Below are positions 18,944 through 47,358 of a stretch of 64,000 bases of DNA, piece after piece. Source of the stretch: a virus. The notes under the pieces were generated by a model. The model was not told the origin of the DNA, did no database searches, and saw only the letters and a program-made list of their open reading frames with translations. The stretch covers positions 64,001 to 128,000 of IMG/VR virus record IMGVR_UViG_3300023174_000064; one strand, written 5' to 3'. The position numbers were made by a program, and so were the translations under genes. Position 1 is the stretch's first letter. Every line of letters begins with the position of its first letter.

Positions 18944-20074
18944 TTAGCTAACCAAAACTTCTCCGGTAGCAGAATTAGTTACTCGTATTGTTATTGTCGA
19001 TACTGGATACACTAAATCAACAACCACATCTAATATTAGATTGCCCGCAGCTCGAACAGCTTGAGTATTATTTGATTCATCACATATTAAACTATAACTA
19101 GCAATACCATTATTTGCTAAAATACCATTCATTATAGGAGTAGCAGAATTTACTACTTGTAGACGTGTGATTGCATCGTTTATCTCAAACAAATACTGTT
19201 TTAGTGTTGTTGTTAATTGTTTTTTGATGTATAAAGCCAACATCATAGAATTTATTATACTTTGTGATGTACCAGATACCGGATATGAGGTTATATTACT
19301 TAAGAAGAAAGTTCCTTGTCCTGGTATTGAGTTTATTGGATTTACTCCACCAGCTGTAAAATAAGAGATATCACTATCTGAGAATTTTTGTGTCAGATAA
19401 AGAACATTTAAAATTCTACCATTCGTATAACCTGCAGGACTTATCCAAATATTATTACTTTCTGCTGTTCTGGCAAAACAACCAGCAACATCCGGACTCA
19501 TTCCACCATCATACACTGTAGCAACACCGGAATTAAGGTAAGTAAATTTTTTACGACCAGCAACGTAAGTGACGTATTTACTTAAAGTTTTTTGACCAAA
19601 ATCTGCCGTAAATCCGTCATAATTACTACTCATTGATAGAGTAGCAATATCTCTGTAATTACCAACAATAGCCATGCAGTCGGTTCTTGTTGTTGCTGCA
19701 TTTATTGCAGCACTCGAAGAAAAAGTATTACCACCATCAAAAATTACATCCAATTCTACTATATTTTTATTATGGAGAGGGCTGTTTGTTAATAAGTTCA
19801 CGTTGTAAAACGATCCAGTGGATCCGGTTCCACCAACAAAACAAGAACCACCGTATTGCAAATAATTCCAAACACCAAACCATTCTCCTTGCCAATCTCC
19901 AGTTGGTCCACTGGTGGCAAATGTAGAATTACTTAATCTGCCTAGCCAGTCATTTAAAGAAGAAACTGTCATTAAACCAGTTTCTTTTTCCGAAATTCCA
20001 TCAGAACCAGTTATACCAAATTTTGGTACAAGTCCTTTAAAAGAAACCATTCCAGCTTTTAGGTCTTGTGGCAT
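18944..20074 (-). CDS. gp18: Tail sheath protein (unusually short, 376 aa)
   Basis: NYLQYG, WISPAG...G.I, YLFEIND..TR, ICDESNNT; lies upstream of gp19. Confidence 0.88.
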   Translation of the reverse strand: MPQDLKAGMVSFKGLVPKFGITGSDGISEKETGLMTVSSLNDWLGRLSNSTFATSGPTGDWQGEWFGVWNYLQYGGSCFVGGTGSTGSFYNVNLLTNSPLHNKNIVELDVIFDGGNTFSSSAAINAATTRTDCMAIVGNYRDIATLSMSSNYDGFTADFGQKTLSKYVTYVAGRKKFTYLNSGVATVYDGGMSPDVAGCFARTAESNNIWISPAGYTNGRILNVLYLTQKFSDSDISYFTAGGVNPINSIPGQGTFFLSNITSYPVSGTSQSIINSMMLALYIKKQLTTTLKQYLFEINDAITRLQVVNSATPIMNGILANNGIASYSLICDESNNTQAVRAAGNLILDVVVDLVYPVSTITIRVTNSATGEVLVS

Positions 20075-20100
20075 TTATATAGTCCTTTATTCCGTTCCAA

Positions 20101-20108
20101 TATTTATG
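20101..20108 (-). promoter_or_regulatory. Late promoter CATAAATA (gp18)
   Basis: Near-consensus octamer. Confidence 0.65.
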
Positions 20109-20112
20109 TTTT

Positions 20113-21762
20113 TTAAAAATTCACTTGTCCTTCATCGTTATCATAGGAACTAATAAAACCAAAACTAAACCAATCGTCTTCTTCTATTTTTTTAATTTCT
20201 CCCTCAAACAGCTCTTTTCTGATATCAATATTAGTAATTTCTTTAAAATACGGCTGTTTTGTAAGCCAAGAGAATAGCACCAAACACATAACTAGGTCGT
20301 CTGTATGACCATCATCTGCACTAAAACTATTCCATTTTGCTACAAACGATAGTAATTCTTTTATTATTTCTTCGTCTTCAATAATTAATTTGTCTTGTTC
20401 TACCAAACTCTTTAGGATAGAACAACCTAATTTTTTTACTATAGCAGTCGTTCTTACTCCAAATAACGTTTCACCTTTACCAAATCCGCCGTTTAATACC
20501 ATTCCAGCTCGGCCTTTATTCATGCTAGTTAGCAAGTTATCATATTCCAGATCGTAATGTAAAATATCAGCAACCTGTCCACCAATATCATTTACTTCTA
20601 CTAACATGTAAGCATTATTGTATTTTTTACCTAAAGCAGCTAAAATGGTAGGATAGAGCATAGGTGAAATAATATTATTTCTATATTTTGCCACAATTTT
20701 GTATGGCGATTCTGTTATATCAAATACCACTGCAGCACTGTAATCTTTTCCTTGTCCTCTGGAGGTATCCACAGTTATCACATATGCTCTGTTGGGCTTA
20801 GGTTCCTCGTATACCGAAAATCCTTCGGCTGATCTGGATAACGGTCTTTTAGAAACCAACACATGTAGTTTAGAAGTAGAAATTAGTGTGTTAGACGAAC
20901 CAATAAAGTCACAATCATATTCGCTTTTAAACTTCTGTTCACCACCAGAACCGCCACCTAATTGCTTAATAGTTCGTTGTTTCCATTTATCGTCTCGTAG
21001 CGGACCACCCGGATATAGAGGAACTTGGCTCCAATGTACCTCTACTGGCACGTATTCGTTCTTGCCTTCTTCTCCGGCCTTCCTAGAGGCTCCCTGCCAA
21101 AGGTTGTAAAACATGTTTAAACCGTTTGGTGTCGATACTATGATGACTTTAGTGGTTTGACCGGATGTAATAGTCGGATACACCGAGCTAAAAAACTCAT
21201 CCGCAATATTAGCTGGAACGTGGGCAAACTCATCCATAAAGATTACGTTATACGAACCACCGCGAACAGCAGAAGCAGAGGTGGCAGATGCCAAAACACG
21301 AGATCCATTTTCTAACTGAATAGAAGTCTTGTTCCACTCAACCACACCGTGTTGAAGCCATTTTGGAAGATACTCGTAAGCTTCTTTTAAACGCTTCATA
21401 ATTTCCATAGCAGTCTTCATCTTGTTGGCAAGAATGGCTATGTTTACGTTTTGATTAAATATTAAATAATGAACCATCCAAGCAACAGTGGTTGTAGTTT
21501 TACCGGTCTGTCGAGGTAGCTTGGCAATAACAAAACGATTATCTTGGATTGTTCTAACAATATTTTCTTGATAATCATACAACCCAAAAGACTCAAGACC
21601 TTTATCTGTAGTTACAATCTTAATGTATTTTTTAATAAAATATACTGGATCGTTCGCACATTTAATGTACTCTTCAACTTGCTCTTTAGTAAATTCAATA
21701 GAAACCCCAATCTCTTTAAGATTAGGATTGCCAAGATAACCTGATTTTTTTTTATATCCCAT
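20113..21762 (-). CDS. gp17: Terminase large subunit
   Basis: YLGNPNLK, PRQTGKTT, DEFAHV, STPNGLN, DTSRGQGKDYS, HTDDLVM. Confidence 0.98.
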   Translation of the reverse strand: MGYKKKSGYLGNPNLKEIGVSIEFTKEQVEEYIKCANDPVYFIKKYIKIVTTDKGLESFGLYDYQENIVRTIQDNRFVIAKLPRQTGKTTTTVAWMVHYLIFNQNVNIAILANKMKTAMEIMKRLKEAYEYLPKWLQHGVVEWNKTSIQLENGSRVLASATSASAVRGGSYNVIFMDEFAHVPANIADEFFSSVYPTITSGQTTKVIIVSTPNGLNMFYNLWQGASRKAGEEGKNEYVPVEVHWSQVPLYPGGPLRDDKWKQRTIKQLGGGSGGEQKFKSEYDCDFIGSSNTLISTSKLHVLVSKRPLSRSAEGFSVYEEPKPNRAYVITVDTSRGQGKDYSAAVVFDITESPYKIVAKYRNNIISPMLYPTILAALGKKYNNAYMLVEVNDIGGQVADILHYDLEYDNLLTSMNKGRAGMVLNGGFGKGETLFGVRTTAIVKKLGCSILKSLVEQDKLIIEDEEIIKELLSFVAKWNSFSADDGHTDDLVMCLVLFSWLTKQPYFKEITNIDIRKELFEGEIKKIEEDDWFSFGFISSYDNDEGQVNF

Positions 21763-22189
21763 CGTCTAAAAATTTCTGGCTGTCAAGAGCCTTGTTTCTG
21801 CTGCGATCTTTGTTTATTAGATCTTGTAATTCACTGGTAGAACCAACGTAAATTGAATTGTTAGTTGTATGATTAACTTTAATTTCTTCTTTCTTGATTG
21901 CTTTAGATTTTTGATATAAATCTATTAAATCTTTATTCATTTCTGAGACAGTTTTTAATAACTGTCCAAGAACTTCATAAGCTCTTGGTGAATCACCTGC
22001 TTTTGCAACTTTAAGAATTTCGTCTATTGCGCAAGAACCATTATCAATCAATCCTTTAATGTTATCACGAACATAATTAAAATCTGCATCAAGACTAACA
22101 CCTGTAGTGTTGTCTTTTTTTATGATAACTGGTTCCGATCCTTTAAATTCTATACCTAAATTTTGAGAAATAATATCAGAAGAATCCAT
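21752..22189 (-). CDS. gp16: Terminase small subunit
   Basis: SPRAYEV, NNSIYVGSTSELQ. Confidence 0.92.
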   Translation of the reverse strand: MDSSDIISQNLGIEFKGSEPVIIKKDNTTGVSLDADFNYVRDNIKGLIDNGSCAIDEILKVAKAGDSPRAYEVLGQLLKTVSEMNKDLIDLYQKSKAIKKEEIKVNHTTNNSIYVGSTSELQDLINKDRSRNKALDSQKFLDDGI

Positions 22190-22194
22190 ATAAT

Positions 22195-22863
22195 TTATAC
22201 ATTTCCATTTATAAGAGTTACTCCATCAATATCATATACATTAAAATTAACAGTTCGAATACTTGTACCAGTAGTAATTTTTCCATAAATGTACGATTTT
22301 GCAACAAACTGATAAGAACTAACAATAAATCTTCTGGTACTAAAATCACCTTCAAATTCTTGAGTTAAATTGCTGGTTGCTATACTAACAGGAACATCTA
22401 TATTTTGGCTTAAACTATTCATATTTACTGATATTAAAAATTCAGGAGAAAAATAAGGAAGAATTTGTTCCATTATTTGTAAATTTTCTTCTAAATTTCT
22501 AGTAAAAATACTTAAATTAAACACAAAATTATAAGGAACTTCGGCATAGGAATAACTGGCGGTTAGACCGTTATTGCTTATTTTTTTGTTTGTTTTATTT
22601 AATTTTCGTATAGGATCGTATATTATCTGAGACAATTCAAATGACATTCTAGGAAGAGAAATTTCTATACGTGTTTTATCGCTTATTGAACTGGGTTCAA
22701 TTAAACGTTTTATAAATTTTTCTTTTGCAGTGTACATCAAAGGAACAGTGAATATTCTTTCATCGCCATTTTCATCTGTCTGCTGTAGTTCAACGCCATT
22801 AAAAAGACTTCCAAAAGCAATAACGAGTTTTCTGATAGAATCATTTTTATAGTGTGAAAACAT
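22195..22863 (-). CDS. gp15: Tail sheath stabiliser / terminator
   Basis: IRKLVIAFGSLFN, LPRMSFE, QIMEQILPYFSP. Confidence 0.94.
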   Translation of the reverse strand: MFSHYKNDSIRKLVIAFGSLFNGVELQQTDENGDERIFTVPLMYTAKEKFIKRLIEPSSISDKTRIEISLPRMSFELSQIIYDPIRKLNKTNKKISNNGLTASYSYAEVPYNFVFNLSIFTRNLEENLQIMEQILPYFSPEFLISVNMNSLSQNIDVPVSIATSNLTQEFEGDFSTRRFIVSSYQFVAKSYIYGKITTGTSIRTVNFNVYDIDGVTLINGNV

Positions 22864-23792
22864 TAATAATTTCCTTCAGAGAATGGATCAGTTTCTGTGA
22901 AATTTATTATATCAGAATTTGTAGCTTCTTTTTCTATGTCATCATTATCACCAGCTGGTGTTTTATCTTCACTAGAAACAAGCACGATATTTGTTGTTTC
23001 GCCCACAATAGAAGTAACGTAACACTCTATACCGCTGTCTACACCCTTTAGAGTTTGTGATGTTTCTATATTTCCTGTGACATTCACTAATTCTAGATAA
23101 CCGTTTCCTGCAGGTTTAATTGCAACATAACCAACCCCAGTTGCATTTTGTTCCAGTGCGTCTTGTTCCCTGAATCCGTATACTTGATACACCTTTTCTC
23201 CCGGATAATAAGTGTGTAAAGTTATTCCAGCTATATCGTTGCCAATTGCATATTTTTGAGTATACTGGCGGCTTTCTTCTTGTAGTGCATCGATATCTGT
23301 GGTTCCTGTAGTTACGTTCTCTTGATCGTAAGTAAACAGCTCGCATGTTAAACGATACGAATACAATTTTCCTTGTTGATAAAAGGGATTTTCGTGTTCC
23401 ACAAAATTTATTTCAAACATAGATTTTGAGAGTGGAAAATAAATTAAATCTCCTTCTCTTGGTCGAGTAATTTCAGAAAATCTAGTTTGGACTTCTTGTA
23501 TAAAGCGTTTTTTAGATAAAGTAAGAAATATATTATCTTTAATTTCAATTCCAAATTTACTGGCAATATCACCTTGGCCCCTAAATCCGGTAACAGAATC
23601 AATATACATTTCTAATGGTACAGAATCTTTGTAAGATACTTGATTTCCTTCACCAAAAATTTTATCAAATACTACCATATTTCTTGGAATGTAATACATT
23701 TCTCTGCCCATCGTTTTAATTATTTCAATGGTCAGATCTTCTGTTACGTCTTGTTCACCAGAATAATCTTTAAAATATGGATTAGTGGGCAT
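22863..23792 (-). CDS. gp14: Neck protein
   Basis: YYIPR, RPREGDLIYFP, FEINFVEHENPFYQ. Confidence 0.94.
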   Translation of the reverse strand: MPTNPYFKDYSGEQDVTEDLTIEIIKTMGREMYYIPRNMVVFDKIFGEGNQVSYKDSVPLEMYIDSVTGFRGQGDIASKFGIEIKDNIFLTLSKKRFIQEVQTRFSEITRPREGDLIYFPLSKSMFEINFVEHENPFYQQGKLYSYRLTCELFTYDQENVTTGTTDIDALQEESRQYTQKYAIGNDIAGITLHTYYPGEKVYQVYGFREQDALEQNATGVGYVAIKPAGNGYLELVNVTGNIETSQTLKGVDSGIECYVTSIVGETTNIVLVSSEDKTPAGDNDDIEKEATNSDIINFTETDPFSEGNY

Positions 23793-23793
23793 A

Positions 23794-24594
23794 TTAACCT
23801 GTCATGAAATCAATTGGCAATTCGTAACTACGTAGGACATCTGCTTCTATTTGTGCTATTTCTGAAGTTGCTTCTGCAAAAATTTGAGCACCGCGCATAG
23901 TGACACCACCGGGTAATTGCACTCCCTCAAACTTAGACATGTTTGCTCCCCATTGACGCTTTATAAGAGCAGTCAAATATCTCTTCAAATAACGATCATT
24001 AAATATTTCAGTGTATTTTTCTGGATCTAAAGCAGCATACGCCAAAATACAAATCCAATTTCCTGCTTTTGCTTCTTCGCTCCAATTCATGTCAAGATAA
24101 AGACGATTGGTTACTTTGCTGAACTCAATAGCCTTTTCTGGTTGAAACATGTCTTGAATTAATTGAATGTATCGTTTTGTGGAATCATAAGAAGCCAGAC
24201 CCATAGAGTAAACACCACTTAAATTTCTATTAATACCAAAATAATCAGTTAGTGCTAATTGATAACGAACGTCAAACATGTTGATATTTGAAAACGCACC
24301 AAATTGCATAACTTTAACTACCGATACTATTTGTTTGCCAGTCGGGCCATCCGCTTCATTTGGTGATAAAATATTTTCTGTATTGATATAACGATTATCG
24401 ATATCTTGTTGGGTTACTTGATATTTAAAAAATACTTTTTCTACACCATCAAAATGACGTTCTGTGAAGTATTGAAGAGCGTCGTCTAAACGGTCTTCGC
24501 ACTGTTCCCAATCCACGTTGATTTCGACAACAGGAGCTCCTAATTGTCGCAAACTATATTGAATTAATGATTCTCTGGAATTTGGTGTTGCCAT
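23794..24594 (-). CDS. gp13: Neck protein
   Basis: LRQLGAPVVEINV, HFDG, IKRQWGANMSKFEGVQLPGG. Confidence 0.95.
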   Translation of the reverse strand: MATPNSRESLIQYSLRQLGAPVVEINVDWEQCEDRLDDALQYFTERHFDGVEKVFFKYQVTQQDIDNRYINTENILSPNEADGPTGKQIVSVVKVMQFGAFSNINMFDVRYQLALTDYFGINRNLSGVYSMGLASYDSTKRYIQLIQDMFQPEKAIEFSKVTNRLYLDMNWSEEAKAGNWICILAYAALDPEKYTEIFNDRYLKRYLTALIKRQWGANMSKFEGVQLPGGVTMRGAQIFAEATSEIAQIEADVLRSYELPIDFMTG

Positions 24595-24606
24595 GGTTGT
24601 TAAATA

Positions 24607-24614
24607 TATTTATG
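24607..24614 (-). promoter_or_regulatory. Late promoter CATAAATA (gp13)
   Basis: Near-consensus octamer. Confidence 0.65.
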
Positions 24615-24640
24615 GCAAACAACAATTTACCAATTAGATA

Positions 24641-25162
24641 TTATTCTAAATTTGTGCCTTCTGGTGGGGCGTGAACGTTTACAGGAATTTTCATAACTTC
24701 ACTATAATCTATAGTTTCAATATAGTATTTTCTACTAATAGGCTCTGTTTTTTCGTCTGAATTACTGGGTTCGTAATTTGAAAATCCGGGCATTTTAAGA
24801 GGACAATTTAATTTTGGGTAGTCTAGTTTGCTGTACTCTTCTGATGTTCCAGTCAACCAACTTCTTGGTTTATCACCACAACCACATCCACCACAGTAAA
24901 ATTTGCCTGCAGTTTCGCTGGTTTTGAGATGTTGACATGGTGGCAATTCACCACCATTTGATTGATTACCAAAACATCCCAAAACTCTGAGTTGTTTTGT
25001 TGGCGTATCAATCTTATTATCAGCAAATCCTCTAGACACAATTGCCTGAGCAAAACTTTGTATCAACCCTAGTTTTGTTGATAAGATATTTTTTACTTGT
25101 TGCTCTGGTGGTTCTTCTCTAAACTGTTCATTTTGTTTGTTTTTATTGCATCCACAACCCAT
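24641..25162 (-). CDS. Cys-rich hypothetical protein (CGCG...KL...CPL family)
   Basis: MGCGCNK, FYCGGCGCG, KLDYPKLNCPL. Confidence 0.75.
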   Translation of the reverse strand: MGCGCNKNKQNEQFREEPPEQQVKNILSTKLGLIQSFAQAIVSRGFADNKIDTPTKQLRVLGCFGNQSNGGELPPCQHLKTSETAGKFYCGGCGCGDKPRSWLTGTSEEYSKLDYPKLNCPLKMPGFSNYEPSNSDEKTEPISRKYYIETIDYSEVMKIPVNVHAPPEGTNLE

Positions 25163-25190
25163 AATATAATCCTTTCACTTACTATACTAT

Positions 25191-29063: not shown

Positions 29064-29753
29064 TTAAATAATACTTCTGATTGTTAATCCGTTTCGGAAA
29101 CCAATATAACCAGTCGTTCCCGTTCTGACTGCAGTAAATATAGGAACCATGTATTCTCCAGTTCCTGCAGTTCTACCAAAACCACTGATTTGTAATTTTA
29201 ATCTGTCTGCACCACAAGGTCCGTTTACAAAATTCATATTATGGGAATCTTGTAGTGTTCTGTCTTGTGTTGTGCCTGCTGTATCGTTTGTTGTGCAACT
29301 AATAGTTACTGGTTTGATCACCATACCGTAATCTCCAGTACTTCCTGTTGCTCCAGTAAATCCACTCATAATAGTTCTTGCAGTATTATTATAAACCCAA
29401 ACACCAAGACCGCCATTAGTGTTATTGTGTTTGATGAGATACCATCCAGCACTTCCTGTTGCAGTAATAGAAGTAGAACCACTAGAAGAAATCAGAGAAG
29501 AAGTATAAGGCGTACATCCATCCCAAGGAACGGTTCCAGCTGTCCATCCCTGACTTTGTAAACCACTATTTAATGTATTTTGTACATAAAATATTTCTTG
29601 AATTTCATTTAATTCAGATGCTTGTAGTGGATATCCTGCTTTAAATGCAACAGCATAATAATTTTTTGAAGCGTTTATTTGAGATTCTACTCTGCTTCTA
29701 AAAGGATTTTGGTTGAACGGAAATCCGCCTGTAAATGGTGTTGGTATTGGCAT
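29064..29753 (-). CDS. Virion structural protein (short DUF4815/VrlC-like N-terminal domain)
   Basis: KNYYAVAFKAGYPLQASELNEIQ and GADRLK motifs. Confidence 0.7.
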   Translation of the reverse strand: MPIPTPFTGGFPFNQNPFRSRVESQINASKNYYAVAFKAGYPLQASELNEIQEIFYVQNTLNSGLQSQGWTAGTVPWDGCTPYTSSLISSSGSTSITATGSAGWYLIKHNNTNGGLGVWVYNNTARTIMSGFTGATGSTGDYGMVIKPVTISCTTNDTAGTTQDRTLQDSHNMNFVNGPCGADRLKLQISGFGRTAGTGEYMVPIFTAVRTGTTGYIGFRNGLTIRSII

Positions 29754-30879: not shown

Positions 30880-32601
30880 TTATGTGGATTGTGTTATATT
30901 TGTATTAAATGATGCAGTCAATAAAAATTCATCCTTTATTACGGTAGAGTCTGGATATCGTGGATATGCTGTCATGTCTATAGATTTATTTTTTGCTAAC
31001 ACGTTTTCGCTTATTACAGCATATCCATCAGAATAATTTACATACCCTAAATAACCAAAACCACCAATTAAAGATGAATTTGCATCCACAGAAACAAGTT
31101 TTCCTTCTGTTGCTGTTCCGGTAGAATCAAATGTAATAGGTGTATCTGCCAAATAAATTGTTTGACTGCTATACGATAATCCTGTTGTTTTTATTGCATT
31201 TCCGTATGCTGCTGTGCTTCCAGGTCTTAATTGATTTTTAAAGTTTACTAATTTTTGGCCATCGGAACCACATACTCCTAAAACAAAATTTAAAGAATTT
31301 ATTCCTATACTTTTTATATTTGTAAAATTTGCGTCCGCCACAGTTTTCATATCTGCCACTCTAATATTATTATTAAATATTCTAGGACTATTATAATAAT
31401 TTTGTAATATACCAGCCAAACCAGTCACCGATGTTGAATTAGTTGTTACTACATCTAACGTAATGTTAGCTGTTATTGGTTGTGCCTGAACATATTCAGG
31501 TAAAGTTCCTATTATTGATTTTGCCTTTAAGAATGCTATAGAATTTTTAACTTGTAAAGATCCTGCAGTAATTCCTGTGTTTGCAAAAGAAACAAATATT
31601 CTACCATATGCTGGAGGTGTTGCCGTATCTCCTCCCCATATATTTAATTGTTCTTTTTGGGTTATAGACGAAGGTAGTAAATTTGAAGATAACAAAAAGC
31701 TGTAATAATCTTCTTGTGTTACTGCTCTTTGATTAGCTGCAAACGATTTGGGAGCAGAATAACGAATTGCGTCTAGATTGGGAGAATCTGTTCCACCAGA
31801 AGTAGAAGTAGAACTTTTTATTGTTATACTTGCATTTTTTATAGAAGTAATACTGTTTGCTGCAGTTCCAGAAGAAACCAAATAAGAAACCTGAACAATG
31901 TCGGATTCGTTTATTGTCTTTCCTTCAGAAGTTGAATAACTACTCGCATTTGTTTTTCCAAATACTAGTTGAAATCCATCTACAATTCTTTCAACATAGA
32001 ATATTTCACTATCAGAATTTGGTATTTGTGAACCATCATATCGGGTCCATAGTGTTCCGTTAACTTTAACACTAACAGTAACTGGATCTATAGTTCCTAA
32101 GAAAGCAGTTTGTTTATTTAAATCTACGGATATTGTTAAATCCTTAACAACGCTGTTTGCTTCGTATACTGTAAATTCAGTATTTGTTGATACATTTACA
32201 TCACTTATTGTATAAAATTTATAGGTAGAACCAGAAATATTATTTCCAGTAAATGTTGTAGAATATCTTAATACTTTAAATGGGCTTGATGGATTCAAAG
32301 AATCTGCTATAATTTGTGATGTTGCACAACTTTTGCTAGGAACAGATACGCCTAACATATTGGCAAGGCGAACCACATTATTTTCTATTTGAGCAGTATC
32401 TAAAAATGTTTCATTTGCTATCATATTTGTATAATAGCCGTAGAACATGGTGTTATACGCAAGAACATCTAATAAAAGATTTAAAGTACTTCCACTAAAA
32501 TCATATCCAGAAAATTCTGGTTTAGAACTAAGGTATGATTTTAATGATGCTTTTACTCCATCAAAATCTAAAGACGAAATGTTTATTGGTGTGTTTGCCA
32601 T
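30880..32601 (-). CDS. gp6: Baseplate wedge subunit
   Basis: LDFDGVK, YDFSGS.L..LLDVLAYNT, ETFLDTA, QRAVTQEDY. Confidence 0.94.
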   Translation of the reverse strand: MANTPINISSLDFDGVKASLKSYLSSKPEFSGYDFSGSTLNLLLDVLAYNTMFYGYYTNMIANETFLDTAQIENNVVRLANMLGVSVPSKSCATSQIIADSLNPSSPFKVLRYSTTFTGNNISGSTYKFYTISDVNVSTNTEFTVYEANSVVKDLTISVDLNKQTAFLGTIDPVTVSVKVNGTLWTRYDGSQIPNSDSEIFYVERIVDGFQLVFGKTNASSYSTSEGKTINESDIVQVSYLVSSGTAANSITSIKNASITIKSSTSTSGGTDSPNLDAIRYSAPKSFAANQRAVTQEDYYSFLLSSNLLPSSITQKEQLNIWGGDTATPPAYGRIFVSFANTGITAGSLQVKNSIAFLKAKSIIGTLPEYVQAQPITANITLDVVTTNSTSVTGLAGILQNYYNSPRIFNNNIRVADMKTVADANFTNIKSIGINSLNFVLGVCGSDGQKLVNFKNQLRPGSTAAYGNAIKTTGLSYSSQTIYLADTPITFDSTGTATEGKLVSVDANSSLIGGFGYLGYVNYSDGYAVISENVLAKNKSIDMTAYPRYPDSTVIKDEFLLTASFNTNITQST

Positions 32602-38252: not shown

Positions 38253-38984
38253 TTATAGAAAATTAAATCGTTCGGATCTGCTCAATAAACCTAGTGTACC
38301 ATCGCCCAATTGCATTGCTGGTTCTAATTCTATGAATTGTAATTTTATATTAATTGCCAGCGGTTTGTAATCTGTAGTCATAAATGGCGTATTAGAAATG
38401 GGAGAATGGTTGATGTCTACACTTTCTAGTACAGAAACTAAAGGATTTCCATCCCAATACCATTTAACCGGACTTATATTGGTACCACTGGCATAAAAAT
38501 ACCAAAGAGGAGGATGTGTCATATTTAAAATAGACTCAGTAAATGTTCCAGGATACATGTAAGTTTGAAAGGCCAGACCTATTTTACTGATTGCTTCTGC
38601 ATGAGCTGCTGTTTTTGCCACCAAATTCATATCAAAAACATGCGTTCTTCTTGCTCCAGGAGTTAAAACGGTCTCTACGTGATCATAAGAAAAGATTCCA
38701 AGACCTTCCGCAAACGCATTATCCGTTTCGCTTTCTTTTAAATCGTATTCGGTTTTATCAAATAAACCTTCACTATCTCCGTATTTACCGGTCATGTATC
38801 TTTGAGAATTCCTTGTAGAAAACCTAAAGGGATATGGAACAGAGATAGAAACTGCCGCATTGCTCAGTACGTGACCTCTGGTACGTTCTGCAACAAAACT
38901 ACTGTATCTAGCAGCTTTAAATGTCATCCAAACCGGTATTTCAGAAGCAGCTGAATCGTTTGGAAAATAATATTCTATAGCCAT
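38253..38984 (-). CDS. gp48: Baseplate tail-tube cap
   Basis: RTHVFDMNLVAKT..EA..I, VLESVDINHSP, LQFIELE. Confidence 0.75.
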   Translation of the reverse strand: MAIEYYFPNDSAASEIPVWMTFKAARYSSFVAERTRGHVLSNAAVSISVPYPFRFSTRNSQRYMTGKYGDSEGLFDKTEYDLKESETDNAFAEGLGIFSYDHVETVLTPGARRTHVFDMNLVAKTAAHAEAISKIGLAFQTYMYPGTFTESILNMTHPPLWYFYASGTNISPVKWYWDGNPLVSVLESVDINHSPISNTPFMTTDYKPLAINIKLQFIELEPAMQLGDGTLGLLSRSERFNFL

Positions 38985-38993: not shown

Positions 38994-39006
38994 TATATTG
39001 AAAATT

Positions 39007-39480
39007 ATGGCGTATAAAACTAAATACCAACCCAAAAATCCAAATAAATATGTTGGCAACCCATCCAACATTATTTGTAGATCTAATTGGGAACGAAAAT
39101 TTTGTAAATACTTGGACGAAAATCAAAATATACTAACCTGGTCCAGTGAAGAGTTAAAAATACCATATTTATCCACAATAGACAAACAAATACACAATTA
39201 TTATCCTGATTTTGTATTTGAAGCAAAAATCAACCAAGCTGAGATAGAAACCTTTATTGTAGAAATAAAACCAAAAAAACAAACAATAGAACCTACTCCT
39301 AAAAAAAATAAAAGAGCGTATTTAAATGAATGTATAACTTATGAAACTAATAGATGTAAATGGACGGCTGCTGCTTTATTTTGTGAAGATAAAAAATGGA
39401 AATTTAAAATATTAACCGAAGATGATTTGTTCAAAACTAATACCAAAAAGGAATCACCCATAAATGTCTTCAAAATTTAA
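39007..39480 (+). CDS. gp4: Head completion nuclease
   Basis: PKNPNKYVG, RSNWERKF, WSSEE, YYPDF, VEIKP, ILTE. Confidence 0.94.
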   Translation: MAYKTKYQPKNPNKYVGNPSNIICRSNWERKFCKYLDENQNILTWSSEELKIPYLSTIDKQIHNYYPDFVFEAKINQAEIETFIVEIKPKKQTIEPTPKKNKRAYLNECITYETNRCKWTAAALFCEDKKWKFKILTEDDLFKTNTKKESPINVFKI

Positions 39481-40012: not shown

Positions 40013-40017
40013 ACCCA

Positions 40018-40025
40018 TATAAATA
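40018..40025 (+). promoter_or_regulatory. Late promoter TATAAATA (gp26)
   Basis: Exact octamer 6 nt before the ATG. Confidence 0.75.
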
Positions 40026-40031
40026 TTTAAA

Positions 40032-40928
40032 ATGGCATTAAAAGATTTATTAACATCATCATTACCTAATTATTGTGTTACTTTATTGTCTGGAAGAAAT
40101 ATATGTTTCAGACCAATGATGGTCTCAGAAGAAAAATCATTATTATTGGCAAAACAACACGAACAAAAACAAACAATAATAAAAAATTTAATAAATGTAT
40201 TATCAAATTGTTGTTCTGAAGAAAATTTAAAAAAAATAAAAGAAGTAACAATAGCAGAATTTGAAAATATATTCTTATTAGTAAGAGCCAAATCAATCGG
40301 TGAAACTGAATCGTTTTTAATAAAATGCCCAGAAACTAAAGAGCAAGTTCGTATTAGTGTTAATTTAGAAACTGATGTAAAATTAACACAAAACAAACCA
40401 AATAACATTATTAAAATAAATGACAATTTAGTTATTTTAATGAAAGAACCTTCTGTTTTTTCTTTATTTCAATACCCAGAATACGATAAAAACCCAGATC
40501 AAATGTTTGGGTTTATAGGATCTTGTATTAAAGAAATACAAACTCCCAAAGAAATTATAAATTGTGAAGATATATCAGAACAAGAATTAATTGATTTTAT
40601 TAAAAATTTAACAAAAAAACAATTTAATGAAATATCAAATTATTTAAACAAAATATCAAAAACTTATATCTTAGCGGATTATACGACATCAGACGGTAAA
40701 TCCAGACAAATAAAAATAAATGGCATCTTCAACTACTTTAATTTTTTTTTTGATCACCTAAATCTTAAATTGTTTTATAAACAAAATTTTTTATTAAAAA
40801 ATTATCATAATTACAGTTTATACGAAATAGAAAATATGATACCTTGGGAAAGAACAATTTATATTGAACAAATAAGAAGTTATTTAAAAGAAAAAGAACA
40901 AGCAAAAAAAGGATTTGAATTTCTATGA
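40032..40928 (+). CDS. gp26: Baseplate hub assembly protein gp26 fused in frame to a gp51-like domain
   Basis: FRPMMVSEEKSLL, RAKSIGE, then YSLYEIENMIPWERTIY (gp51-like). Confidence 0.85.
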   Translation: MALKDLLTSSLPNYCVTLLSGRNICFRPMMVSEEKSLLLAKQHEQKQTIIKNLINVLSNCCSEENLKKIKEVTIAEFENIFLLVRAKSIGETESFLIKCPETKEQVRISVNLETDVKLTQNKPNNIIKINDNLVILMKEPSVFSLFQYPEYDKNPDQMFGFIGSCIKEIQTPKEIINCEDISEQELIDFIKNLTKKQFNEISNYLNKISKTYILADYTTSDGKSRQIKINGIFNYFNFFFDHLNLKLFYKQNFLLKNYHNYSLYEIENMIPWERTIYIEQIRSYLKEKEQAKKGFEFL

Positions 40929-41563
40929 TTGAAGAAGATAAAGAAGAACCAGTAAATCAACCAGCTCCAGACACATTTTTTGATGCACTGGTAGATTCTG
41001 GTTTTTTCCCCGAATCATTAGAATTTGTAAAAGATAAAATAAATCCTGGAAATACTGAAGAAGAAACAGATAAAAGTCCAGATATAACAGAAACGCAACA
41101 AGAATCTAATATTGCTATAGAAGACATAAAGCCTATAGAACAATCAGAAGAAACAGAACAAGAACAGGCAATCTCTCTTTCTGATTTAAAAATCGAACAA
41201 ACTTCTGATACAAACAATGAATCTAATATTGCAACACAAGAATTAGAACAACAATCAGAAGAGCAAGAAAAAAGTGAATCAGAATTAAAGTCGGAACCCA
41301 TATCTGAACCAGAGTCTTCTGAAAGTTCCGATAAAATTAATGAAAGTTTAAAAGATCTAATACAAAAAAGCAAAGCAAATCAAGCACAGTCGTTTGCAAA
41401 CGAAGAGCCTGAAGAACCAAACCAAGAATCAGAAGATATAAAAGGTATTGATATTACTAATGAATCAAGCACAACAAATGTAATGCCTTTAGAGCCTGAT
41501 CATTTTAAAATAGTAAAAGACAAATATAAACAAATTCCTAATTGGAGAACATTAATTGGGTAA
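40925..41563 (+). CDS. Acidic low-complexity hypothetical protein
   Basis: 212-aa E/S/Q-rich ORF; ATGA overlap. Confidence 0.7.
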   Translation: MIEEDKEEPVNQPAPDTFFDALVDSGFFPESLEFVKDKINPGNTEEETDKSPDITETQQESNIAIEDIKPIEQSEETEQEQAISLSDLKIEQTSDTNNESNIATQELEQQSEEQEKSESELKSEPISEPESSESSDKINESLKDLIQKSKANQAQSFANEEPEEPNQESEDIKGIDITNESSTTNVMPLEPDHFKIVKDKYKQIPNWRTLIG

Positions 41564-41566
41564 AAG

Positions 41567-41590
41567 AAAAGGCCCCTTTCGGGGCCTTTT
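41567..41590. terminator. Bidirectional intrinsic terminator
   Basis: aaaaggcccc tttc ggggcctttt between convergent genes. Confidence 0.9.
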
Positions 41591-42463
41591 TTATTCGTCT
41601 CCTAGAGACTTCAGGTAACTTTCAACATCTACATCTTCATCCACTTCCGTCTTTGGGGACGGCTTTCGTGAAGGCCGAGCAGGTGCTTCATTCTCAATAG
41701 TGTCCTCTTCGGTGGCTTCACCGCGAACATCGCCTCCTAGAGCGTCTACGAGCTTCACCTTGAGTTCTGCGTAACTCTTGAACTCCTTGGGATTCACAAA
41801 CTCCTTGAGGGCGTATTGCTTCTTCCACAGAGCCTCAAGTTTGGCGTCATCACCGTCAAGCAGTTCTGAAGCCGCACTAAACTCAGACTTATCGTAGTTG
41901 ACATAACCTTCAACCTTACGAATCTTTAGCTTGAAGTTGGCACCCTTCCAGAAGTCAAACGGATTTACTGCATTCTCGTCTTCAAACTCTGGGTTCATTT
42001 GCTCTTGAATCTTCTCAAAAATCTTCTTGCCGTACTTAAACAGGAACACCTTACCCTTGTTTTGAGGAGCAGCAGGATCTTCCACAACAAGAATATTAGA
42101 CACGTAATTAAGCTTACGCTTACGATCACGAGCAATACGCTTATCGCTTTCAGTACCACTATTCCATAGCTCACTGTTTGCTTCACAAACCGGGCACTTT
42201 TCGCCAAGGGTAGTGGGGCAGTTGTGAATAAACCAACCACTCTTTCCCTTAAACGCGTGAGAGTACAGCTTAACCCATGGAATATCCTCGTTCTCCACTG
42301 CTGGAAGAAATCGAATTACAGCATATCCATTACTAGCAGAGTCCAGAGTTGGTCGCCAAAATCGATCATCCTTGTAGTCGTTGTTCTTGTTACTCTTCTC
42401 AAGTTCCTCTTGGAGCTTGCTGGCCATTGTCGTTGAATTCTTCTTTAGATCTTTAAATCCCAT
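41591..42463 (-). CDS. gp32: Single-stranded DNA-binding protein
   Basis: DDRFW, NGYAVIRFLP, CPTTLGEKCPVCE, PFDFWKGANFKLKIR. Confidence 0.97.
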   Translation of the reverse strand: MGFKDLKKNSTTMASKLQEELEKSNKNNDYKDDRFWRPTLDSASNGYAVIRFLPAVENEDIPWVKLYSHAFKGKSGWFIHNCPTTLGEKCPVCEANSELWNSGTESDKRIARDRKRKLNYVSNILVVEDPAAPQNKGKVFLFKYGKKIFEKIQEQMNPEFEDENAVNPFDFWKGANFKLKIRKVEGYVNYDKSEFSAASELLDGDDAKLEALWKKQYALKEFVNPKEFKSYAELKVKLVDALGGDVRGEATEEDTIENEAPARPSRKPSPKTEVDEDVDVESYLKSLGDE

Positions 42464-42485
42464 TATAAATCTCCTTTAATATAAA

Positions 42486-42513
42486 AGTATACACCGGATA
42501 AACTGTAAGTCAA
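42486..42513 (-). promoter_or_regulatory. Sigma70-like promoter TTGACT-16-TATACT (gp32)
   Basis: Hexamers read directly. Confidence 0.7.
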
Positions 42514-42514
42514 A

Positions 42515-42745
42515 TCAAATTGGTAATTTTGATGATTTTGGAAGGTAATTTAATCGCTGTCCTTCTTGCTCTATTTTTTCAATAATAGGCTTTGAAAGTA
42601 TTTTTGCAACACTTTCTGGAAGTACATCTTTACTTTCACAAATAGTAACAACAGCATCCATATAAGACACTTTCCATTGTTCTACATATTTTTCTACTTG
42701 TCGGCAGAAATCGTTTTGTGATTCTTCATCAAAAAATATCACCAT
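42515..42745 (-). CDS. gp33: Late transcription co-activator
   Basis: SYMDAV, KILSKPIIEKIEQEG..LNYL..KLPI. Confidence 0.9.
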   Translation of the reverse strand: MVIFFDEESQNDFCRQVEKYVEQWKVSYMDAVVTICESKDVLPESVAKILSKPIIEKIEQEGQRLNYLPKSSKLPI

Positions 42746-42790
42746 AAGTACAAATATTTATAGGGCATTACTATTAAAATCCAAATATTA

Positions 42791-43324
42791 TTAAATCTTT
42801 ATACGATCAATTATTGAATATAAAACACCCTTAATTGCATCCTTGGTGTGTTTCCATTTCTTTTCTTCTCCTTTTACTGGAGAAAATTTACTGAGAGGAC
42901 ATGTAGTACCTGCCAAAGTTAGTTTAACAGAAAGTGCTGCGCGTCTGCTTGCACCACAACCACATAGTGAACAAAATCCAATACCACCTGGATCTGTTTT
43001 GTCTTCTAAACTATCAACCCTACCTGGGCATCCCTTGCACAAGTCTAATCTCTTTTTTATTTCTTTTTGAGGAGCAGGTCCTTGAGTTGCATGTTTTACC
43101 TCAACCTTTAAATATTGTTTGGCTTTAATTAAAAATAATCTAAAATCTTTAATTTTTTTATTCCAAAAAATATAAAATAAACTAGTTTTTAAAGGATCTG
43201 TGCCATTACTGCACTTTTTTAAATCCTGAATAACTTCAGAGGTCATTTTTGCTGTTTTTCTTTTTTGTAATTTTGCGTGATGTTCAATTACTTTTTGTTT
43301 ACATTTTATAAAAAAATCATCCAT
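42791..43324 (-). CDS. Cys-rich hypothetical protein (paralog of 24641..25162)
   Basis: RLDLCKGCP, FCSLCGCG, KLTLAGTTCPL. Confidence 0.75.
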   Translation of the reverse strand: MDDFFIKCKQKVIEHHAKLQKRKTAKMTSEVIQDLKKCSNGTDPLKTSLFYIFWNKKIKDFRLFLIKAKQYLKVEVKHATQGPAPQKEIKKRLDLCKGCPGRVDSLEDKTDPGGIGFCSLCGCGASRRAALSVKLTLAGTTCPLSKFSPVKGEEKKWKHTKDAIKGVLYSIIDRIKI

Positions 43325-43329
43325 AAAAA

Positions 43330-46300
43330 TTAATCTCCATTAAATCCAGTACAACCTGTTGTTCCGCTTGGCCAACTAATTTCACCACTAATACAACCGG
43401 ATGCAGTACAACCAAGAGTGTATCCCCATGCTGTATAATTCCATTCGTAATCATCCAAACAAGATGTCCAAGATCCTGTAACTCCAGACCATTGACCCTT
43501 TTGAGCAAGTTTCTTTGTGTTGGTTGATGGAACGGGAACCCATGAAGGATAATGACCAAATGTTGCTCCAGTAACTCCTACATTTATTGGCCACGGTGGA
43601 CACGGATCTTCTAGTGTTCCACTAACCCATAACTTTAGTCCCTTTGTGGTATCTGATGTAGAATTACTGTAACCTTTAGGCATCAACTTATTATAATATC
43701 TTCTGTTTTCATTGCAAGAAGAAGACCAAACAAATTCACCAGAAAGTCCTCTAGACCAAGGGGTTGCTCTGATGTGAACACCAAAACTTCTTCCTGTTGC
43801 GTAACTTATTACAGGATTATTAAAACACCAACGATTAATTGAATCACTTAATCCGGCATCACACATAAATCCGGTTTGTCCGGATAGCGACCAAGGACCA
43901 TTTGGATCTTGAGCAGGATATCCTGGAAGTTTATCTTCTCCTCCCGCATCAACAGCAAATGCTGTACTGCTTTCACAAGACAAACTTATACCATCACACT
44001 TCCACAAAAATCGTACACCACGAGGATTACAAGCACACGGATTATTTGTAATTTGTGGTGTGGTATAACAATCTATACCTCCAACAGTCGCAGTTTGAGA
44101 AAATGGTGGTTGATCTGGATCGCAACCTGTTCCTATTGCACTTATTGGGAAATAGTACTGCATGGAATTTGGCCAGTCGTTTCCATATACTGTTCTTGGA
44201 AAAAATGTTGCTGGTCTTTGGTCTTGTTTATAACAATTATTCATAAACCAAGTAGGCATTCCTGGACCCAATCTACTACCACTATTCCACGGTAAATTTT
44301 CTAGTGGCATATCAGTACCACCACCGTTTCTGTAAGTAACATACACTCCAGTTTTATTGTATTTTCTGGCACATACAGCAAGATCCACGTAATTAGGAAC
44401 AGCAAATCCCACATCAGTTTCTATATTCCAAGGTCCCCAAGGTCTTGTTGGGAACATGTGAGCACTCAAAGGTAGGGCAGGACCTATGCTACATTCTGTT
44501 GCAAACGGATCAGTGTAAAATGGATTGTTTACTCCATTACTGTCACCGTTACCACTTGGAGGTTCTGTATTACTATCACTTGGAATGTAAATACCAGCGT
44601 ATGTTGTATTTCCTACTTCAACCGAATGTTCTGATGCATTTCCACCAACGTAACCACATTCTGCACACGGATCAGGTACGTAAATACTTCCGCCATTTCC
44701 GCCGTAATCGGTATCCCATGAATTCTGACCCTGATTGTTTGTAACTGGATTACCACTAGTTCTATTCAGACCTTTATCATCCATTAAATGATATTTTTCG
44801 CATTTAGAGTAAGCAGATGTAGTAATCAAATTTGCAGCTAATCCTTCACCCAATTCTTGGCCAGTAAGAACTCGTGTGGAAGAAACCCAAGCAACCGTGT
44901 TTGTACCAGCAACACATGTAAGAGACCGTGCCATATGAGACGGGTATCTAAAGATTCCAGGAACTCCTTTTACGCCCATTGCACCAGAAAAATTACCGTC
45001 AGACGGACAGAAAGACTCACATGGATGGTCTGCACCAAAGTTCATAGTACATCTGTTAGCAAGTTCTCCATCGTTTGCACATCTTGAAGGAATACCAGGA
45101 AGATTTCTAGAAGATGGTCTACTTCTACTTGGTGCTGCAACTTTTGTGCTCCAACCGTAAGAAGCATTGACTCTATTCCAACTAGGATATAATCCTCCCG
45201 TGAATCCAGCAGGTCTTACTTGCTGCCCTGCTGTCCATAAATTAGTTGTTGTGATTGCCCAATTAGGATCATAACCGGATTCTCCATAGTCACAATTAAA
45301 ACATCCAATTCCTTCTCCTCTTGGTGGTAAAGAAGGAGTACAACTATAAAAACTATTACTACTAAAATCCCAATTATCGTAGGCTGGACAGTCGTATTGT
45401 TGTTTTGAACAAGGAGTAATATAACCTCGATCAGTCATATAAAATTTACAATCTATAGGATCGCTGGGAACACAACCAGGACATACTCCACCAACCGGTG
45501 GTTGATCGTTGCAACAAGTTAATGTATTATTGTAGTTGTAACCACGGTCTTTAGGTGTTACTGTTCCTTGGTATGGTACATAATTACTGTCAAACGAACA
45601 GTCTCTGCTGTACAGTCTGGTTGGTCCGTCTGGAGCGTAAGCAGTGTCTGCTGCATTTGATTTTCGTGTAGTAACAATCTGTCCGGATCTTCTCATGCCT
45701 ACAGCAAAATCTTTATAGATGGTTAGACCAGCGCAGTCTTCACACCAAACTTTAGGATCAAACCAACTCTTATCAGTTGCTCCATCGATTGGATCTGATA
45801 TATTTCCTGTATATAACCAATTTACAGGATATATTGGATCCACATGAACTCCCAGATCAAAGTGCGGGAATCCGGGAGTTCCTTTTCTCCAGTACGCAAA
45901 CCAGTCAGTGTTTGCATTATATGTTGGATTATCGTATTTGTTACTGGGATATTGTGGTGAAATGGGATCCGGATAACCAATACTGCCAGGACCCATGCAC
46001 GCAGATCCTTCTCCTGCTTGTCCGTTGTGGCGTTTGATTGGAGAAATTTTAATGTCTGTCCAATTGTTTACCGCACACGCCACATCAGGATCACCCCAAC
46101 AAAGAGCTGTGCCGTCATTAAACAGCACTGCACTGGTACTAAATCCTGCATGTATACTGACAATTTTATTGATCTTGGGGTGGCGTCCTAGTGTTATTCC
46201 GGCTTTTAGTGATTCTGGAACATTGCATTGTCCCATGGAATTTAATCCCCAACACATAATAGTATTGTCTTCTAGACGAATTATGTTGTGATAAGCACCA

Positions 46301-47358
46301 CACTCAATGTCTATAACTTTTAATTTTGTTGATCCTGCACCTTTTGTTGGTAGAGTTGGAACACACAAAGGATGGCCAACAGGAGCAGGAATTACTGCTG
46401 GTTTGTAATACTCGTAAACGGTTATACCAGTTAAAAAGGTTACACCATTTGGTCCAGTTACTGAGTACAGATAATTACTAAAAGTGACCGAATTTAAATC
46501 ACCAAAAGTACCGTACTTTTTTGTTATCAGATATTTCCAACGTTCACTGGTTACTCCACCAATTCCAAAAGTATTACCAGTATTTAATTTATACGGCCTT
46601 TCTACTCTTGATCCTTCACCATCAAATTCAATGTATCCGTGAGGCCAATTGTATGTAAAATGATTTGCAGGATCACCTTCATTGCCTGGTCCGTCGTATG
46701 TGGTTATTCTGTTTCTTGTGTACCAACATCCTCTGCCTATCGGGCCGGTTTCCCCGGATGATATGTCATTGTTTATGCCGGTACAACCAGAACAACCAGT
46801 GCATCCAATTCCAGTGATGTACACACAAGTTCCAGTACAACCAGTACATCCTTGATATAAACTTAATTCTAAACTTTCACTGGATCTGCATATACCAGTA
46901 AACACGTTAAACAAACTTTTAACGATAGGGTACTTGCTGGTTTCTGAACAATTATAATTTGTTAGTTGAGAACCCACTCCTTCTCTGGCAGGAGAAGTTA
47001 CAGATTCTGCAGGAGAGTGAATCATTATATCAACATCTTGATCTGAATTAGTCCAATTTGTTCTGTTTGGACTTCCATTTGGATTGAATGTTGTGATGTA
47101 ACGATTAGCTCCGTCAGAAAAATATGGAGACTCGTGCACACGCATCCAATCGTAATCAAAAACACCCCAAGCACGAGTGTCTTGATTACCTATTTGGCCG
47201 TACGTTACACCTTTTGCGCCTTCTAATCCAGAACCAATAAAACAATTAATTCTGCCGTCTAATGTCATCACTAAAAAGTGATACCATCCGGCTCGAACTA
47301 AAACCATATCTCCGGTTAAACCTATAGGTGAACAACAACAAGGATTCCATCTAGACAT
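43330..47358 (-). CDS. Large Cys-rich putative virion protein with RCC1-like blades
   Basis: 1342 aa; MSRWNPCCC; IECGAYHNIIRLEDNTIMCWGLNSMGQ, IHAGFSTSAVLFNDGTALCWG. Confidence 0.75.
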   Translation of the reverse strand: MSRWNPCCCSPIGLTGDMVLVRAGWYHFLVMTLDGRINCFIGSGLEGAKGVTYGQIGNQDTRAWGVFDYDWMRVHESPYFSDGANRYITTFNPNGSPNRTNWTNSDQDVDIMIHSPAESVTSPAREGVGSQLTNYNCSETSKYPIVKSLFNVFTGICRSSESLELSLYQGCTGCTGTCVYITGIGCTGCSGCTGINNDISSGETGPIGRGCWYTRNRITTYDGPGNEGDPANHFTYNWPHGYIEFDGEGSRVERPYKLNTGNTFGIGGVTSERWKYLITKKYGTFGDLNSVTFSNYLYSVTGPNGVTFLTGITVYEYYKPAVIPAPVGHPLCVPTLPTKGAGSTKLKVIDIECGAYHNIIRLEDNTIMCWGLNSMGQCNVPESLKAGITLGRHPKINKIVSIHAGFSTSAVLFNDGTALCWGDPDVACAVNNWTDIKISPIKRHNGQAGEGSACMGPGSIGYPDPISPQYPSNKYDNPTYNANTDWFAYWRKGTPGFPHFDLGVHVDPIYPVNWLYTGNISDPIDGATDKSWFDPKVWCEDCAGLTIYKDFAVGMRRSGQIVTTRKSNAADTAYAPDGPTRLYSRDCSFDSNYVPYQGTVTPKDRGYNYNNTLTCCNDQPPVGGVCPGCVPSDPIDCKFYMTDRGYITPCSKQQYDCPAYDNWDFSSNSFYSCTPSLPPRGEGIGCFNCDYGESGYDPNWAITTTNLWTAGQQVRPAGFTGGLYPSWNRVNASYGWSTKVAAPSRSRPSSRNLPGIPSRCANDGELANRCTMNFGADHPCESFCPSDGNFSGAMGVKGVPGIFRYPSHMARSLTCVAGTNTVAWVSSTRVLTGQELGEGLAANLITTSAYSKCEKYHLMDDKGLNRTSGNPVTNNQGQNSWDTDYGGNGGSIYVPDPCAECGYVGGNASEHSVEVGNTTYAGIYIPSDSNTEPPSGNGDSNGVNNPFYTDPFATECSIGPALPLSAHMFPTRPWGPWNIETDVGFAVPNYVDLAVCARKYNKTGVYVTYRNGGGTDMPLENLPWNSGSRLGPGMPTWFMNNCYKQDQRPATFFPRTVYGNDWPNSMQYYFPISAIGTGCDPDQPPFSQTATVGGIDCYTTPQITNNPCACNPRGVRFLWKCDGISLSCESSTAFAVDAGGEDKLPGYPAQDPNGPWSLSGQTGFMCDAGLSDSINRWCFNNPVISYATGRSFGVHIRATPWSRGLSGEFVWSSSCNENRRYYNKLMPKGYSNSTSDTTKGLKLWVSGTLEDPCPPWPINVGVTGATFGHYPSWVPVPSTNTKKLAQKGQWSGVTGSWTSCLDDYEWNYTAWGYTLGCTASGCISGEISWPSGTTGCTGFNGD

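Follow-up and report, generated by a model that had tools for sequence, protein, structure and literature searches.

The 64,000-nucleotide stretch analysed here (the window; bases 64001-128000 of the 146,037-bp virus contig G000, IMG/VR record IMGVR_UViG_3300023174_000064) belongs to a T4-like myovirus, and the proteins on the outside of its virion are enriched in the tripeptide G-x-T followed by G, A, F or L. On outward virion proteins the extended form of the motif, [S/N/T/A]-G-[I/V/L/A]-T-[G/A/F], most likely serves as acceptor for a cytoplasmic protein O-glycosyltransferase that the phage itself encodes. The candidate enzyme, a 414-amino-acid (aa) GT2-TPR protein, is encoded upstream of the window, at the fibre end of a glycan island. 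We consider phage-encoded, motif-directed O-glycosylation of the virion surface the best reading of these observations, with the balance tilting modestly in its favour. A first-pass annotation of the window had suggested such a modification sequon for Thr, Ser and Cys alike; what is best supported is a sequon specific to Thr.

The G-x-T motif in virion proteins

Expected counts of G-x-T were computed from each protein's own composition. In the main set, the 24 open reading frames (ORFs; 9337 aa) at 18944-47358, the motif was found 118 times against 71.2 expected (1.66x, z 5.5), which ranks it first in over-representation among all 400 i/i+2 residue pairs. The excess is present both in the two giant proteins (59 against 37.5) and in the remaining 22 ORFs (59 against 33.7), while G..T pairs at spacings 0, 2, and 3 are slightly low (ratios of 0.84, 0.90, and 0.77). 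The first-pass annotation had described a recurrence of G-x-[T/S/C], but after composition correction neither G-x-S (60 against 68.9) nor G-x-C (15 against 13.3) is enriched in this set, and there is therefore no sign of S-glycosylation of the kind catalysed by SunS and ThuS. Its remark that the motif is usually followed by G, A, F or L was borne out: the entire excess lies in G-x-T-[G/A/F/L] (75 against 29.9; G-x-T-G alone, 36 against 9.9), and G-x-T with any other next residue is at expectation (43 against 41). The example peptides that it quoted all exist, although one of them, GFTG of gp3, is at residue 3 of the ORF at 10950-11450, outside the range given for the motif. The comparison set, the other 53 window ORFs, contains 34 G-x-T against 43.5 expected, so that the scarcity which the first-pass annotation had noted for the replication proteins holds relative to the structural proteins, the depletion itself not being significant.

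Several other causes of the excess were tried and rejected. Shuffling within blocks of 10-40 residues yielded 73-75 +/- 7 G-x-T (maximum 100 in 500 shuffles), well below the real 118; local richness in Gly and Thr is therefore not the cause. Gly codon usage at the sites is the same as overall Gly usage and every codon combination is present, which excludes a motif at the DNA level and places the signal in the protein. Shared paralogous domains were dismissed since blastp gives only two links among the structural proteins. Collagen-like G-X-Y runs in the window proteins comprise only 2-3 triplets and G..G periodicity in the window set is weak, and the long uninterrupted runs typical of BclA are absent there; long G-X-Y runs are present in the fibres of relatives and in jumbo phage Tunturi_5.

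The distribution of the motif over the virion was determined in six genomes, G000 and the five long related contigs G001-G005. In this set, the proteins of the tail, baseplate, fibres, and neck contain 898 G-x-T against 503 expected (z 17.6) and 598 G-x-T-[GAFL] against 133, whereas the counts for head and inner proteins (61 against 53) and for non-virion proteins (262 against 280) show no comparable excess. Masking of collagen-like tracts (runs of at least three triplets) leaves 684 against 424 in the exterior proteins (1.61x), which rules out such tracts as the sole cause. Charged residues are disfavoured after the Thr. The enriched families are the fibres (G-x-T-[GAFLY] 131 against 18.8), the 135-aa adaptor, whose motif density is the highest in the clade (25 against 3.7 in five orthologues), the sheath (28 against 7.2), gp13, gp14, gp15, the gp7-like protein, the 793-aa protein, the gp53-RCC1 fusion (21 against 4.6), the second giant protein, and the capsid protein (2.8x). 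No enrichment was seen in the portal, protease, scaffold-like protein, gp25, hub, gp4, gp48/54-like protein, terminases, SSB, and gp6. The enrichment roughly follows the split between the outside and the inside of the virion; the lack of clade-wide enrichment in gp6 (7 against 6.5) fits an inner, buried ring.

The excess is confined to relatives of the window phage. The structural proteins of T4 (45 against 51.6, ratio 0.87) and of cyanophage S-RIM14 (ratio 1.13, or 1.04 without its giant proteins) show none. A survey of about 60 gp6-centred IMG/VR loci gave a median ratio of about 1.05, the only outliers being close kin of the window phage and three contigs with long (G-x-T)n collagen-like proteins; the other 55 or so T4-like loci lack the excess (ratio about 1.05). 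A general trait of T4-like or beta-rich tail proteins is ruled out by these comparisons. All 79 IMG/VR loci that encode a relative of the 229-aa baseplate protein of the window are enriched, at every identity tier (4127 against 2319, control spacings about 0.9). As a separate observation, very long collagen-like (G-x-T)n proteins, with up to 432 G-x-T against 148 expected, are encoded beside gp6 in the T4-like contigs L071, L072, and L073 (IMG/VR 3300027608_000911, 3300008339_000381, and 3300008113_000714, respectively); no GT2-TPR enzyme was found in these contigs, which are fragmentary (4-17% complete).

The sites are kept over short evolutionary distances and turn over at longer ones. A 65%-identical relative retains 29 of 39 sites (74%, where the conservation of the other Gly and Thr residues would predict 38%), and a 34%-identical one only two of 27. 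In the 229-aa family (71 sequences), the 22 nearest members carry 7-12 sites each, as opposed to 1-5 in the remaining 49; GCTP79 is the only invariant site, and six to eight sites were gained in one subclade. The gp53-RCC1 fusion keeps 10 of its 10 sites in a 64%-identical orthologue. The sheath carries GITG20, GPTG56, GGTGSTG81-87, GNTF115, GFTA154, and GYTN215, with four N-terminal G-x-T-G sites retained by 73-112 of 118 homologues. At the clade's sites the sheaths of T4 and S-RIM14 read GPQT, GASA, GGLS, and AGYN, with Gly retained and Q, A, L, or N in the place of Thr; Thr was thus added beside pre-existing structural glycines, and the fold does not need it. An AlphaFold2 model of the sheath (predicted local distance difference test score, pLDDT, 90.5), which Foldseek matched to the T4 gp18, AFP, and PVC sheaths, confirming a minimal two-domain sheath, has the sites in loops at helix or strand edges. 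Loops also hold nine of the 10 sites in the model of the 229-aa protein (pLDDT 84.6; Foldseek gave only weak matches, to TssK and the phi812 baseplate). Judged from these alignments and models, the sites are clade-specific gains on conserved folds. The convergent surface-loop placement proposed by the first-pass annotation is supported to this extent, for two modelled proteins.

The same data bear on the possibility that G-x-T-G is an unmodified structural or folding motif of the clade, such as a helix N-cap, a beta-turn-to-strand cap, or a mini collagen-like or fibre repeat, and that the island serves some other purpose. In the sheath model Thr residues lie just before or at helix starts (T58 precedes helix 59-72 and T117 starts helix 117-130), in the 229-aa model they lie just before strands, and the sheath sites are conserved down to 30% identity. 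Furthermore, the fibres hold true repeats (FNGLTGAV) and short G-x-T tandems, and the selection of Thr but not Ser is what would be expected of a beta-branched structural residue. Yet orthologous folds in T4 and cyanophages manage without the Thr, the sites turn over at 34% identity and were gained in bulk in a single subclade, and the motif has no single structural context, being seen ahead of helices and of strands as well as in long loops. Enrichment tracks virion exposure rather than fold class, and 1.61x is left after the masking of collagen-like tracts. We consider a purely structural role unlikely.

The GT2-TPR enzyme and the glycan island

A 15-kb glycan island (G000 48762-63845) ends 155 bases before the window. 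The first-pass annotation had noted that no glycosyltransferase was visible; this was an artefact of the window edge, since the island, with at least eight glycosyltransferases, lies just upstream of it. The island encodes two GT2 enzymes, an epimerase/dehydratase, a UDP-galactopyranose mutase, a DXD sugar-binding glycosyltransferase, a GT92 enzyme, two GT47-like enzymes, a nucleotide-diphospho-sugar transferase, a GT10-like enzyme, a cytidylyltransferase, a Methyltransf_24 protein, and FkbM methyltransferases. No membrane segments were found in any island protein, and the island contains no flippase or polymerase. Only its flanks are conserved in G001-G005. At the fibre end this is the 414-aa GT2-TPR gene (56-82% identical in all five contigs); at the other end a GT10-like gene and a 212-aa gene are kept, sometimes with a 499-aa GT2 whose residues 337-499 are 35-37% identical to mycobacteriophage LittleE gp15 and to a glycosyltransferase of phage Omega. 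The 11-15 genes between the flanks mostly differ from genome to genome, and most genome pairs share 0-29% of gene content. The window itself contains a Methyltransf_24 gene, which the first-pass annotation had suggested might methylate glycans. The gene is real and its product is 53% identical to the island copy at G000 53849, which makes a role as a glycan O-methylase plausible, but no homologue is present in G001-G005.

The N-terminal part of the 414-aa protein matches Pfam Glycos_transf_2 (7e-11, residues 8-95), and six orthologues share the motifs IDADD and DTGSTDGT without variation. For residues 180-299, weak but consistent scores were obtained against the TPR proteins MamA and CTPR (E about 2e-3) and against TPR families of NCBIfam. 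The best matches in the PDB are ThuS (4.6e-10), GmaR (7.9e-9), and SunS (1e-7), all with low identity. The best NCBIfam match is the SunS-family peptide glycosyltransferase TIGR04195, with a score of 47 bits against a cut-off of 350; the enzyme is therefore not an equivalog of SunS. No homologue at E<=1e-3 was found in any cyanophage or T-even record of a 50,697-record phage collection, and none in four T4-like contigs that lack the enrichment.

In IMG/VR, 560 or more contigs contain a gene for the enzyme. The order of genes, i.e., island, GT2-TPR enzyme, 135-aa adaptor, and fibres, is constant. In the 80 IMG/VR loci that encode the enzyme, the proteins downstream of it contain 3352 G-x-T against 1586 expected, and the enzymes upstream contain 751 against 664. 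The T4 late-promoter word TATAAATA is found at -26/-21 of the enzyme start in 19 of 70 loci (1.8 expected) and precedes the adaptor gene in 23 loci of the same count; in the window genome, the nearest copy is 61 bases before the epimerase gene that precedes the enzyme. The word also stands 5-26 bases before the capsid (11529-12962), gp4 (38998-39480), and hub (40032-40928) genes and before the starts of a few small genes of the window; these positions fit T4-type late promoters.

Among isolates, the closest homologue of the enzyme (37-39% identical) is encoded by Tunturi_5, 4 kb from tail fibre gp29, which is the most G-x-T-rich protein of that 308-kb genome (79 against 30) and has (GPT/GAT)n tracts. 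Tunturi_5 is an independent lineage in which a homologue of the enzyme is encoded near a G-x-T-rich fibre. Four T4-like relatives with higher G+C content (48-54%; L300-L302 and L305) have the GT2-TPR gene (50-54% identical), located among replication genes next to the clamp loader and not before fibres, the loci in question containing no structural proteins.

The architecture of the enzyme is that of Clostridioides difficile SgtA, a 358-aa GT-A plus TPR protein encoded beside bclA3, which puts beta-O-linked N-acetylglucosamine (beta-O-GlcNAc) on the Thr of G-P-T triplets in the collagen-like region of BclA3 and accepts Ser in vitro (PMC7157674). The likeness to SgtA is one of architecture, the sequence comparison having been made with ThuS, GmaR, and SunS. 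In both cases a soluble GT-A enzyme with a C-terminal TPR domain is encoded beside the gene of its substrate (here a candidate one), and the acceptor (here putative) is the Thr of Gly-x-Thr followed by Gly. The initiating sugar of BclA3 is extended by other enzymes, for which we propose a counterpart in the phage. True (G-x-T)n tracts, as in BclA3 and in the GPT repeats of Bacillus anthracis BclA, are present in the fibres of the phage group and of Tunturi_5. The two systems differ in that the phage sites are mostly isolated G-x-T-[G/A/F] words, located in the loops of globular virion proteins and not in collagen helices, and in that the phage enzyme adjoins a hypervariable glycan island.

The best matches among solved structures and curated families, the glycocin S/O-glycosyltransferases SunS and ThuS and the Listeria flagellin O-GlcNAc transferase GmaR, likewise combine a GT2 domain with a helical-repeat domain. 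Acting in the cytoplasm, they use a nucleotide sugar as direct donor for the glycosylation of Ser, Thr, or Cys residues in peptides or proteins, which is the activity predicted here, and SunS is itself phage-borne (SPbeta). The putative substrates in the phage are dozens of virion proteins, unlike the single bacteriocin or flagellin modified by these enzymes. Freeman et al. (2023, cited in PMC12801897) reportedly showed that mycobacteriophage virions are glycosylated by phage-encoded glycosyltransferases. To our knowledge, these are the only phages in which virion glycosylation by phage-encoded enzymes has been demonstrated experimentally, and we know of no sequon for it. There, too, phage-encoded glycosyltransferases lie near structural genes, and LittleE gp15 and the Omega enzyme adjoin the capsid gene; host group, virion type (a T4-like myovirus here), and initiating enzyme are different.

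Virion glycosylation and its alternatives

Late in infection, proteins of the sheath, neck, outer baseplate, fibres, and capsid would receive a first sugar from the GT2-TPR enzyme, on Thr residues in exposed G-x-T loops and in collagen-like G-x-T tracts, whether short or long. The enzymes of the variable island would then extend and methylate the glycan, giving each lineage a coat of its own, the use of which, shielding or interaction with the host surface, is speculative. We tentatively propose, with the odds somewhat against so complete a scheme, that the clade, a large and uncultured group of T4-like phages, covers the exterior of its virions (fibres, sheath, neck, outer baseplate, and capsid) with phage-made O-glycans, attached at the Thr sequon G-x-T-(G/A/F) by an SgtA/SunS-like GT2-TPR enzyme and diversified by the hypervariable island, as a sequon-based, evolvable shield comparable to those of animal viruses.

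A number of results weigh against motif-directed glycosylation. The co-occurrence of enzyme and motif is essentially that of one clade, and hence one evolutionary event, plus Tunturi_5. GT2-TPR homologues in megaphages have no G-x-T-rich neighbours within 20 kb, and those in three other IMG/VR lineages (L299, L303, and L304) have none within 10 kb, though we regard both results as uninformative. LittleE, which has a homologue of the 499-aa island GT2, was considered as a second motif-bearing lineage, but its structural proteins show no excess (54 against 52.2). Use of Ser, which SgtA accepts, is not apparent, G-x-S being unenriched. Avoidance of the sequon in cytoplasmic (non-virion) proteins was sought and not found (62 against 67.5, 0.92). 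The tube protein, which is buried, is an imperfect exception to the exterior pattern (16 against 6.5 total G-x-T), and the sheath sites, being nearly invariant in 118 homologues and located at helix N-termini, could be structural caps.

Glycosylation by the enzyme and the island might be confined to fibres, adaptor, and collagen-like G-x-T tracts, as in the case of BclA, with the scattered sites in sheath, neck, baseplate, and capsid proteins enriched for another reason. By far the strongest excess is indeed found directly downstream of the enzyme, in the adaptor and the fibres and in the downstream proteins of the 80 loci, and both SgtA and Tunturi_5 involve collagen-like tracts. However, the sheath, gp13, gp15, the gp7-like protein, and gp53-RCC1 carry the extended motif at four to six times expectation without collagen tracts, and a second cause for the scattered sites is not at hand. 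We therefore judge a restriction to the fibre region to be distinctly improbable. T-even phages glucosylate their DNA. For the glycosyltransferase clusters of cyanophages, the usual proposal in the literature is that DNA or the host surface is modified (PMC12801897). That the island serves either of these ends, the motif excess being unrelated, is nonetheless very improbable, since the nearest characterised relatives of the enzyme glycosylate peptides or proteins and not DNA or lipid carriers, the island lacks a membrane protein, flippase, or polymerase, and the enzyme gene, with late-promoter words, precedes those of the fibres.

No published account of a G-x-T sequon in phages came up in literature searches. 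If motif-directed O-glycosylation of the virion is correct, glycoproteins of bacterial viruses would have a sequon readable from sequence, a function would be assigned to the large and puzzling glycosyltransferase islands of aquatic T4-like phages, and the enzyme would be a candidate Thr-specific peptide glycosyltransferase for glyco-engineering. A hypervariable island combined with gain and loss of sites would further imply an arms race at the level of glycans, with consequences for host range, the binding of decoys, and the stability of particles in lakes and seas.

Features of the window and its surroundings

The virion genes of the window (Table 1) are arranged, according to PHROG and Pfam matches, in the order sheath, terminases, gp15, gp14, gp13, giant fibre-like protein, 229-aa protein, gp7-like protein, gp6, gp25, more baseplate proteins, gp53-RCC1 fusion, gp4, hub proteins, SSB, and second giant protein. 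The capsid protein is about 56% identical to cyanomyovirus capsid proteins, and the baseplate and sheath proteins are less than 30% identical to those of any cultured phage.

Table 1. Coordinates of the features discussed (window positions, or contig positions where marked G000); paired numbers are observed vs expected counts
Feature	Coordinates	Strand	Basis and remarks
Methyltransf_24 / TylF-like methyltransferase	686..1246	-	Pfam
Major capsid protein	11529..12962	-	3 vs 2.9 in window phage; 20 vs 7.2 over clade
Tail sheath, minimal two-domain, 376 aa	18944..20074	-	PHROG tail sheath; 7 G-x-T sites
gp15-like tail sheath stabiliser	22195..22863	-	PHROG 227; G-x-T-[GAFLY] 11 vs 1.7 (six genomes)
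gp14-like neck protein	22863..23792	-	PHROG 460; moderately enriched, 11 vs 4.0 (six genomes)
gp13-like neck protein	23794..24594	-	PHROG 211; enriched, 8 vs 1.9 (six genomes)
Giant fibre-like protein, 1284 aa	25191..29045	-	Repeated FNGLTGAV-x-GVT and SA[AS]GATF units; 32 G-x-T
229-aa baseplate protein	29064..29753	-	Weak DUF4815 and TssK-like signal; 10 G-x-T including GFTGATGSTG
gp7-like wedge protein, 365 aa	29778..30875	-	Enriched, 20 vs 3.4 (six genomes)
gp6 baseplate wedge	30880..32601	-	PHROG 219; 8 G-x-T sites in window phage
Baseplate or tail protein, 793 aa	34024..36405	-	Enriched, 40 vs 9.9 (six genomes)
gp53-like N-terminus with RCC1-repeat propeller, 614 aa	36402..38246	-	Pfam Phage_gp53, RCC1_2; 10 G-x-T
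Giant Cys-rich protein, 1342 aa, RCC1 repeats	43330..47358	-	27 G-x-T vs 13 expected; GCTGCTG tracts
135-aa adaptor	G000 48340-48747		Upstream of window, between GT2-TPR enzyme and fibres
GT2-TPR candidate protein glycosyltransferase, 414 aa	G000 48762-50006		15 kb upstream of window; GT-A (DxD) and TPR

The repeats of the 1284-aa giant protein are shared with a 1428-aa fibre encoded upstream of the window, and a 2041-aa upstream protein (G000 41944-48069) carries at its end a copy, 42% identical over 79 aa, of the gp7-like protein's own C-terminal module. The capsid protein has an extra, clade-specific C-terminal tail, HGNTGFGL, which neither T4 gp23 nor the capsid protein of S-RIM14 possesses. 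Two proteins of the virion module, at 38253-38984 and 13008-14009, are depleted of G-x-T in the six genomes (0 against 6.3 and 1 against 5.6, respectively) and may be internal or assembly proteins.

In the window set, Cys occupies the x position of G-x-T 4.9x as often as expected. The 1342-aa giant protein contains 4.3% Cys and has G-C-T-G tracts (GCTGCTGTC, GCTGCSGCTG). RCC1 beta-propellers, an unusual domain for a T4-type baseplate, are present in the gp53-like fusion and in this protein (Pfam RCC1_2, 6e-23 and 4e-19).

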